Positions 9,001 through 12,000 of a stretch of 64,000 bases of DNA are shown one piece after another; the first letter of the stretch is position 1, and every line of letters starts with the position of its first letter. Made by a program: the position numbers. The stretch comes from Escherichia coli. GTDB taxonomy: Bacteria > Pseudomonadota > Gammaproteobacteria > Enterobacterales > Enterobacteriaceae. The stretch is from assembly GCF_017348835.2 (NCBI RefSeq), contig NZ_CP071375.1. The stretch is one strand, 5' to 3'.

Positions 9001-12000
9001 TAATCCCATTCATCAGGGTCTTTATCGCCGCCATAATCAAACAACAGATTAGTCACCATTGTGGTAACGCATTCCAGCAACACAGCTTCATGCGGGTTAA
9101 TGTCTGCATGAATTAATTCATCAAGATGTTGCCAACGCTCCACCGTGCGCCAGTGCGCCGGACGGCCTTGCCGATGATGTTCTATCCGTGCAGCCATCTC
9201 ATCATCAAGGATTTGCGAGGTGGCGATATACAGAACCTGTGAAGAGTCCCCAATAAGCGCCTCTGCGTGGCGACTCTTCCCGCTCCGTGCGCCCCCCGTC
9301 ACCAAAATCATCATACCTACTCCTGATTCAATTGTATGATGGTATTCATTGAACAGAACAATGGATCCCCCACCGTTGCTGACCGCAAAACATTTACACG
9401 ATTAATACTGCGCGTAATATAATTAAAAATCCAGCATTCTCAATCCATTACGAAAGAAGATGGCATTGCGGAATAGCCCGACTTCCTCGTGTTAACGTAT
9501 GACAAAATGCGTCATTGACAGCGGTTTCTCTGGAATGACAGATTTCATTCAGATAATGGATTAATGCTACAGTCCCACCAGCCGGACCAGTCAGCAAACG
9601 GGCATTGTGTTCTGCAATCAAAATTACCGTCGTTCCCTCAGAATGAGCGAGCCATTCTGGTACGGATATCTCGCTTTCAGCTGCTATCAATAGCTGCACT
9701 GAATAATCGCTATACGCATCTGATAATGATTGCACAGACCCACCGTTAAGAGGCTGGAAATCTTGCTGCCAGTCCTCACGGATAAAACCGCAGCCTCTAC
9801 AGTGCACTGTTGGTCAGTGCCTGCGAAGCGGACATTATCGCGCTGGTGCTTAATGCGGACGCACCGTGGTCACCTTTTTCGCCAGGCTTTACCTCGTCAA
9901 TGAATCGCCCGGTCATTGGAGTAGTAACCAAAGCAGATTTAGCCAACATGGAACAAATATCTTTGGTGAAATGTTGGTTACGGGAAGCTGGAGCGCACAA
10001 CGTGTTAGTAACCAGTGCGGTTAATAACAATAGAGTTGCAGAACTTTTTGCCTTGCTGCATATAGAAGAAGTCTGTCGCTAATTTCGACAGGTCCTCAGA
10101 TGGGAATGATGACGGTGATACACAGAAAAGAATCAATGAGCAATGAGGGTTGCCAAGCAACCCTCATTGAATAAAACAGGAATTACTTCGCTTCGCCGTT
10201 TTTCATTTCGCCCATAGCTTTCAGCTTTTTGGAGATATCACGGCGTTCTTTGGAGAGCTCGGCATTTTTGATGATGTAATCGTCAACACGATCTTCATAG
10301 TCACCTTTCATGCTAGCGATGATGCCCTGGATTGCTTCAACGCTCATCCCCGGCTTGATGTAATCACTCAGGTTGTCCAGCAGCAGGACGCGCTTCTGGT
10401 TGTCACGGATCTTTTTCTCAACGTCCTGAATTTCACGTTGCAGTTTGTTCTTACGACGGAACAGGCGAACAAATTCCAGTACGTCCTGGAATGAAGGCTT
10501 GGTAGTTTCCATTTTTATACCCCTGATAATGTGAGAGTCGGATTCGTTTAAGCAACCGCTATTCGTTAGGGCCAACATTACTCATAGCTGCCGCAGATGA
10601 CAATGCTTTTATCCCTTTTCACTATCATACCCTTTATCCTTGCTGAATCGAAGCAGCAGCAAGATGATTCTGAAGTTCAGGAATTATTTGCGCAAGGCCC
10701 GGCAAATCAGATTCGATAGCAACTCAAGCTGATGTGCCGTTTCCATGTTCAGCCACACATAACCATAGATTGGTGTTTCCACAACCTTCAGGTCATGGTG
10801 GTTATTGAGCAACTGACGCAGCTCTTCCACAGCATCGTTCAATTTTTCCGTATTAGCAAAAACCGGCTGAGGATTACCTTCGTACAGAGCATGAACAAGG
10901 CTCAGCAGTATTTGCTGCATCATGTGCTGGGTATCACGAAGTTTTTGCGCGTTCAATAACACGAAATGGCTGGGGCGCGTGGCCCAGTATGCATTGATTT
11001 GCAACTCCAGCATACAAACCAGATTGCGGTTAATGGTCTGGATACCTTCATATATCGATTTTGGAATACGGGTTTCTTTGCTGGCGGGCGCAATCAGCCC
11101 ACGCATTTTTACGGCATCGGTCAAGAGTTTTTGTAGATGGCTTTCCAGACGTGGGCGTTCGAGTAAGTTCGGTGAGAATGCAGATTGATAGACCCGATTA
11201 TACTCGGTCAGACTTTTCGCCAGTTGAATACGCCAGTGGATGAACGCCCGTTGTGGCCAGATACCGGTAAACAACATTGCCAGTAAAGAGCCGAGGATCA
11301 CATCGCCGCTTCGCCATAACGCCGTATCAATTTCACCTGTCGGGGACCCCACAACAATTGCCAGCGTCACCCCAATCAATAAACCTTGATACGGTTTCTT
11401 GCCCAGCGCCAGCCAACCGCAAAGGAACATGGCCGCCGCGCACCAGACTAACATCAGCGGTAACGAGATTAACTCCAGTTGCAGAGCGATAAGACCTAAA
11501 ATCGAACCCAACACCGTACCGCCAATACGCTCAAAGGCGCGAGGGACAACGTTACCCCAGAACGAGATTGGCCCCATAATCACCACCATGGTGACCAGCG
11601 GCCAGGTGCTTTCCGGGATAGTAAACAGGCGGATAATGAGAAAAGTGAGCAGGAATGCCAGCGCGACCCGAGTACCATGCACAATGCGGTAATGGCGGTA
11701 TACCCGGATTTCAAACGGGCTTAATGACTTATCGGCACGCACGCAGAAACTCCGTAATGAAGATTAAAAGCGCTCATAACTCATCTGTCGGCCAGAAGGC
11801 GCGCCTCTGAATTATCCGACGGACAAACCGGGAACAGTGTAATTTCCCGGCAGGAGCGAAAAAATTGAAAGGCGCATCTTACTCTTTTCGCTTTCAAAAA
11901 AAGAGTGGTCATCGCGTTAACACACCGCCCTGAGATGAATTAGTGATGTTTTGGCTGCACCGCAACATACATTTCGATATCCCAGTACCCATCTTCCGCG

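Follow-up and report, generated by a model that had tools for sequence, protein, structure and literature searches.

The 868-bp cobU-yeeX interval of an Escherichia coli chromosome is very likely the scar of a deletion that removed the pdu operon

The E. coli strains known from the literature to carry the pdu operon include AIEC and ST372 strains, and loss of the cob-pdu cluster in enteric bacteria was reportedly described by Lawrence and Roth in 1996. Gain and loss of pdu have been described in E. coli lineages (PMC9997745), and for E. coli and S. bongori it has been described that loss of cob-pdu leaves fragments of the terminal genes behind (PMC3158058). The interval between cobU and yeeX is the CP4-44 site, with the element in place in K-12 and B and missing in W and Crooks (PMC3032704), and in ExPEC strains a PAI-cobU of 27-43 kb is found at cobU-yeeX (PMC7545054). 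The gene yoeF has been listed among the CP4-44 genes (PMC11551758). Here, we analysed a stretch of 64,000 nucleotides from E. coli (assembly GCF_017348835.2, contig NZ_CP071375.1; hereafter the window), in which only 868 bp separate cobU and yeeX. An earlier note on this DNA had put the gap at about 870 bp, which is essentially what we find, and had regarded it as the unoccupied or ancestral state of the CP4-44 insertion site. We propose instead that the gap is, with high probability, the scar of a 17.26-kb deletion that removed the pdu operon. The features on which the argument is built are the following.

8769-9314, minus strand: cobU, intact, the left anchor; a 181-aa ORF annotated as cobU in strain PE164
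9416-9443, minus strand: promoter-like site, TTGAGA-16-TATATT, from a consensus scan (10/12 matches), about 100 bp upstream of cobU
9448-9779, minus strand: cbiG-like remnant, N-terminal domain, approximately residues 37-145 of the 145-aa version in pdu+ strains
9780-9788, no strand: junction of the proposed deletion, GGAT then AAAAC, from comparison with strains 5132 and VCSW7
9786-10082, plus strand: 'pduV, the 3' two thirds (codons 50-147) of an EutP/PduV GTPase gene, matching PF10662 and TIGR02528; a pseudogene
10141-10169, minus strand: hairpin with a 13-bp stem and a 3-nt loop (RNA fold: centroid -21 kcal/mol, z = -3.8)
10183-10512, minus strand: yeeX/tmaR, intact, the right anchor; annotated as tmaR in PE164

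On the minus strand, the genes in the window are arranged in the order cobT, cobS, cobU, the gap, yeeX/tmaR, yeeA and sbmC. The gap runs from 9315 to 10182, between the cobU start codon at 9314 and the yeeX/tmaR stop at 10183; within the yeeX/tmaR ORF an internal ATG is the true start, giving a protein of 109 aa. E. coli PE164 (NZ_CP114128.1) matches the window with 100% identity over 2101 bp (8700-10800). The cbiG' remnant, 'pduV and a terminator account for the whole gap. None of the CP4-44/PAI-cobU genes (Ag43, yeeR-W, cbeA/cbtA, the TonB receptor, IS remnants) lies between cobU and yeeX in the window, and apart from the 'pduV stub no pdu gene is left in it. The hairpin at 10141-10169 follows the yeeX stop, between the convergent pduV and yeeX, and is retained in all alleles described below. 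Its stem is conserved in six of seven aligned alleles, with variation in the loop and the two closing pairs, and AST85 carries one change deeper in the stem; from its fold and position, it is probably the yeeX/tmaR terminator. A second candidate terminator at 10073-10091 was a weak scan site and was given no weight next to the strong hairpin. An Rfam scan of 9200-10300 returned no family, the sole match being a chance lncRNA hit (E 0.94), and the window has thus lost the cobalamin riboswitch found ahead of cobUST in pdu+ strains. The promoter-like site upstream of cobU sits within 9315-9495, a stretch kept by every allele class. cobUST survives, probably with a promoter of its own immediately upstream of cobU, a function that we infer from the consensus match.

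The pdu+ strain VCSW7 provides an intact counterpart of the interval. Here, cobU is followed by a 145-aa ORF, a cobalamin riboswitch, pocR, pduF, pduA through pduU and an EutP/PduV gene of 147 aa, with 100 bp between its end and yeeX; in strain 5132, the cobU-yeeX interval is laid out in this way, too. The pdu operon of strain 5132 carries an internal deletion (locus 27107-27731) that fuses truncated pduG and pduH, which code for the diol dehydratase reactivase subunits, and is probably already non-functional. By BLAST and alignment, the window is collinear with both strains, the left flank extending to 9779/9788 and the right flank starting at 9784, and 17,257 bp of VCSW7 are missing. The pentamer AAAAC (9784-9788) is present at both parental breakpoints and constitutes a 5-bp microhomology. 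The left parent reads CCTCAC-CAAC-AAAAC-AG, the right parent CCTCG-AAAAC-CGCAGCC and the window CCTCAC-GGAT-AAAAC-CGCAGCC, which places the join within the shared AAAAC at 9784-9788. AST85 and EA2 are joined at the same position, and both read CGAT before AAAAC. The four bases preceding the pentamer (GGAT in the window, CGAT in AST85 and EA2) are unlike both sampled parents (CAAC on the left, CTCG on the right), which points to a slightly imprecise join or to a true parental allele outside the sample. Genomes with the scar have this one junction position in common despite flanks that differ by up to 5%, which points to a single old event.

In the parent allele, as these alignments show, cobT-cobS-cobU are followed by the cbiG' remnant, the cobalamin riboswitch, pocR, pduF, pduA through pduV and yeeX. 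One illegitimate recombination event, joining an AAAAC pentamer within the cbiG' remnant to another at pduV codon 49/50, would have removed 17.26 kb, and the microhomology suggests that it mediated the event. The lost segment would comprise pocR, pduF and pduA-pduU together with the riboswitch, the 5' part of cbiG' and pduV codons 1-49. What would be left over, presumably inert, is a chimeric ORF on the minus strand (9448-9807) and a PduV stub on the plus strand (9786-10082) with neither promoter nor start, alongside the yeeX terminator hairpin.

The identity of the PduV stub, which the earlier note had recognised as a C-terminal EutP/PduV-like frame, is borne out by profile searches. The frame consists of 98 codons without a stop or frameshift. 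It matches the Pfam family PF10662 (PduV-EutP) with an E-value of 1.2e-26 and 93.7 bits (cut-off 21) over profile positions 50-142 of 143, and TIGR02528 (EutP) with an E-value of 2.3e-26 and 92.7 bits, which is under the cut-off of 138.35; intact E. coli PduV scores 186.7 with TIGR02528 and is above it. Both matches are far beyond chance, and the stub falls short of a full-length EutP/PduV domain of about 140-150 aa. In full-length PduV from VCSW7, GPSQCGKT is located at residues 8-15 and DTPG at residues 42-45; the breakpoint at residue 50 lies downstream of both, and the stub accordingly has neither the P-loop (GxxxxGKT) nor the DxxG nucleotide-binding motif. Nor is it located inside a pdu or eut microcompartment operon; its orthologous position in pdu+ strains is the 3' end of the operon. 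The frame has no ATG, and its first in-frame start is a TTG at 9810. The single plus-strand promoter-like site lies at 9393-9420, about 370 bp upstream of the frame. As the stub has no start codon of its own and no P-loop, we regard it as a pseudogene, and PGAP likewise marks the frame in PE164 as a pseudogene ('EutP/PduV family, incomplete, missing N-terminus').

One might ask whether the stub, or the chimeric 119-aa ORF opposite to it, is a functional small gene under selection. The 98-codon frame is open, the 60-codon yoeF of K-12 is annotated as a protein, and a 3' pduV stub is present beside yeeX in 5423 of the 5426 complete E. coli genomes. Against this stand the missing P-loop and DTPG motifs and the lack of an ATG, of a Shine-Dalgarno sequence recognisable by eye before the TTG at 9810 and, in the promoter scan, of any plus-strand promoter-like site between 9421 and 9810. 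Alleles also differ freely in the length of the stub (98, 60, 58, about 92 and about 37 codons), and the persistence of the stub is accounted for by its place beside the yeeX terminator. Compared with VCSW7, the stub has three synonymous and three non-synonymous changes, counted from the alignment, a pattern that neither proves nor excludes constraint. The chimeric ORF (9448-9807, minus strand), annotated as 'hypothetical protein', contains an internal stop in EA2, is truncated in K-12 and is deleted in EC_T6; it appears to decay freely, as expected for a pseudogene. A selected function for either remnant therefore seems extremely improbable to us.

The first eight to nine codons of the 119-aa ORF are the antisense of pduV, read across the junction, which makes the ORF chimeric. 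The remainder corresponds to the N-terminal part of CbiG: the ORF matches positions 40-125 of NF004463 (cobalt-precorrin 5A hydrolase) with an E-value of 0.0055, and the 145-aa ortholog from VCSW7 matches positions 1-125 of the 351 in this model (cut-off 546 bits) with an E-value of 1.7e-19. Only the N-terminal part of the model is covered, and the ORF is not a full-length CbiG; a Pfam search with it gave no match. From the Salmonella gene order, cbiP would have been expected upstream of cobU, and this assignment was discarded since the profile searches match the CbiG N-terminus instead. In pdu+ E. coli (VCSW7 locus 2408-3238), the CbiG N-terminal fragment is located directly downstream of the cobalamin riboswitch, and cobUST may be riboswitch-controlled in these strains. 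The presence of no more than a CbiG N-terminal fragment upstream of cobU indicates that all cbi genes were already gone in pdu+ strains.

The relation to CP4-44 follows from the alignment with K-12. In K-12 DH1, cobU and yeeX are about 13.3 kb apart, with 12.7 kb of CP4-44 at the site, so that the position of the prophage given in the earlier note is confirmed and K-12 does not have the short junction. The DH1 interval contains IS5, IS2, Ag43, yeeR-yeeW, cbeA/cbtA and IS fragments, and ends beside yeeX with yoeF, a 183-bp EutP/PduV ORF. Homology of K-12 to the window ends at 9619 and restarts at 9900, and K-12 hence lacks 280 bp of the window (9620-9899), including the scar junction. Because of this, a clean insertion into the window sequence could not yield K-12, and excision from a K-12-type allele could not yield the window. 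At the K-12 junctions there is neither a tRNA nor a direct repeat or target duplication, the interval holds no tRNA, and no integrase is annotated in the K-12 and EC958 island stretches examined. An occupied site that equals the empty one plus the element, with a duplicated att or target sequence, a tRNA and an integrase, is not what the two alleles present, and the short junction is no classical empty attachment site. On the left, the island abuts an IS4-family fragment and on the right an IS66-family fragment plus 71 bp of other DNA; a split IS was considered for the two K-12 junction ends and rejected, the IS4- and IS66-family fragments not being halves of one element. Both junctions are identical to the base in K-12 (phylogroup A) and in the ST131 strain EC958 (B2), which has an island of about 51 kb, and the island allele thus traces to one event.

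Could the short junction nevertheless represent an ancestral, never-occupied site, with CP4-44 integrating later in the history of K-12? The interval is free of island DNA, the window contains both K-12 flanks, nothing significant derived from pdu was detected at the K-12 island ends, and, with the K-12 breakpoints located outside the scar junction, it is topologically possible that the island inserted into a scar-type allele and that 280 bp were lost. However, the interval holds two truncated genes, intact versions of which occupy the locus in E. coli and in sister species, and it cannot be ancestral for this reason. The 280 bp absent from K-12 and the want of a tRNA, direct repeat, target duplication and, in the island stretches examined, integrase also speak against it, and we consider a never-occupied site very unlikely. 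Of the description as unoccupied or ancestral, the first part stands insofar as CP4-44/PAI-cobU DNA is absent, and the second does not, the intact parent being found at the same place in 644-646 genomes and in sister species. In a weaker form, the scar would be the immediate precursor of the island-bearing allele, which is possible: from the position of the K-12 breakpoints, the island could have entered either a scar-type allele or a pdu+ locus. The converse idea, that a K-12-type ancestor lost CP4-44/PAI-cobU by excision or deletion and so acquired the short junction, can draw on the existence of island-free alleles, some of which (EC_T6 type, 9495/9906) break outside the K-12 breakpoints. 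Yet the window has 9620-9899, which is homologous to cbiG' and pduV of pdu+ strains and which a deletion cannot restore, and the right flank of EC_T6 carries private SNPs of the window (e.g. AATAGAG and GTCTGTCGC) and not those of K-12. We give this excision scenario practically no chance. The EC_T6 SNPs suggest rather that its allele was derived from a scar-type allele by a second deletion.

The resemblance of the stub to K-12 yoeF, which had been noticed before, goes back to orthology. Window positions 9900-10182 align with positions 33600-33882 of the DH1 locus, of which yoeF occupies 33600-33782; the two are one and the same pduV remnant in strand and position, with about 100 bp to the yeeX stop and about 95% identity over 9900-10082. 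They differ in length, with 98 codons left in the window (from PduV residue 50) and 60 in yoeF (from residue 88), and in the upstream neighbour, which is island DNA for yoeF and the cbiG' remnant for the window stub. The ATG of yoeF was created at the island junction, and PGAP annotates yoeF as a protein. The alignments show that K-12 yoeF is the 3' end of the host pduV gene flanking the island and not CP4-44 DNA, and it should be reclassified as host pdu DNA.

Across 5426 complete E. coli genomes, a search with 9400-10182 revealed several structural types of the interval; the alleles, given with window breakpoints, are as follows.

pdu+ (pduT-U-V present), intact: 644-646 genomes, about 12%
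Window-type scar, 9779/9784: 201 genomes with the junction in one piece
Larger island-free deletion, EC_T6 type, 9495/9906: about 330-336 genomes
Island, 9619/9900: 3335 genomes with the K-12-type right junction in one piece
Other right-end structures: about 900 genomes (by subtraction)

Sequence 9660-9900 is matched in 847 genomes, namely the 201 with the scar and 646 that are pdu+, and in no others. As a pduV stub is found in all but three of the genomes, the pdu operon must be older than the present species diversity. The cobU-yeeX interval of E. coli therefore comes in at least four allele classes, that is pdu+, two scar types and the island, and the allele counts and breakpoints might give population studies simple markers of pdu carriage, which has been discussed for AIEC and dog-associated ST372.

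Marker proteins were used to score outgroup loci, which were anchored on YeeX with one genome per species. A full-length pduV, preceded by pduU and pduT, is located 108-116 bp from yeeX in E. albertii, E. whittamii and 'E. coli E69', which makes the pdu+ state with pduV abutting yeeX ancestral for Escherichia. The Escherichia operon ends at pduV, unlike that of Citrobacter and of Salmonella arizonae and diarizonae, in which pduV is about 2.2 kb from yeeX; in the Salmonella operon, pduW-pduX presumably lie between pduV and yeeX, consistent with this spacing. In Kluyvera, Trabulsiella and Kosakonia cowanii, cobU is directly beside yeeX, and tblastn with the E. coli PduV and CbiG-remnant markers gave no match in their cobU-yeeX intervals (about 100-200 bp after yeeX); these genera show a third, apparently clean state of the interval. 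Two further Escherichia genomes have deletions of their own. Escherichia sp. MOD1-EC7003 carries a separate fusion at 9589/9804 in window coordinates (locus 5396-5398), and its cobU appears truncated, with residues 55-181 only. In Escherichia sp. E1V33, homology runs to 9588 and, after 405 bp (locus 10553-10957) with a 36-bp pduP scrap and an IS3-like orfA, resumes at 9970. By comparison of these loci, the pdu operon has been lost several times in Escherichia through different deletions, with end stubs left each time.

The breakpoint pairs are all distinct: 9779/9784 in the window, 9589/9804 in MOD1-EC7003, 9619/9900 in K-12, 9495/9906 in EC_T6 and 9588/9970 in E1V33. One might speculate that they mark a deletion-prone interval with recurrent, perhaps favoured pdu loss, and that the scar allele was an intermediate for the entry of CP4-44/PAI-cobU, pdu being lost first and the island landing afterwards with loss of 280 bp. 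We put this forward tentatively, as a possible and not as the probable course of events.

Two other differences from reference strains were observed in the window. Between yeeZ and hisL, 217 unrelated bases (20357-20573) take the place of the yefM-yoeB toxin-antitoxin pair; in VCSW7, yeeZ and hisL are separated by 660 bp with yefM and yoeB (locus 30571-31230), and EC958 also has the pair. Beyond ldtA, positions 1-5776 hold a PTS sugar-transport/sugar-phosphate block with two PTS IIA/IIB/IIC sets, an RpiB-like protein and DeoR regulators, which in PE164 extends past the range of the window through rpe and hxlB to asnV. This block is absent from K-12 DH1, where ldtA is directly beside a tRNA-Asn, and present in the pdu+ strain 5132.

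Taken together, the window junction is an ordinary, already annotated allele of a published variable site and matters little beyond bookkeeping. Judging from its gene content, the strain should be unable to use 1,2-propanediol via the Pdu microcompartment, and it has also lost the cobalamin riboswitch. Like CP4-44 and PAI-cobU, the scar occupies the interval between cobU and yeeX, but unlike the island alleles with their breakpoints at 9619/9900, the window has no island and is joined at 9779/9784. Its closest counterpart is the pdu operon of the pdu+ E. coli strains VCSW7 and 5132, to which the stub corresponds as the 3' end of the last gene, in the orthologous position between cobUST and yeeX, whereas pocR, pduF, pduA-U and the 5' end of pduV are absent from the window. 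As in the cob-pdu loss of S. bongori, a cluster was deleted and fragments of its terminal genes remain. In contrast to the S. bongori case, the event seen in the window varies among strains of a single species and can be resolved to its exact breakpoints.
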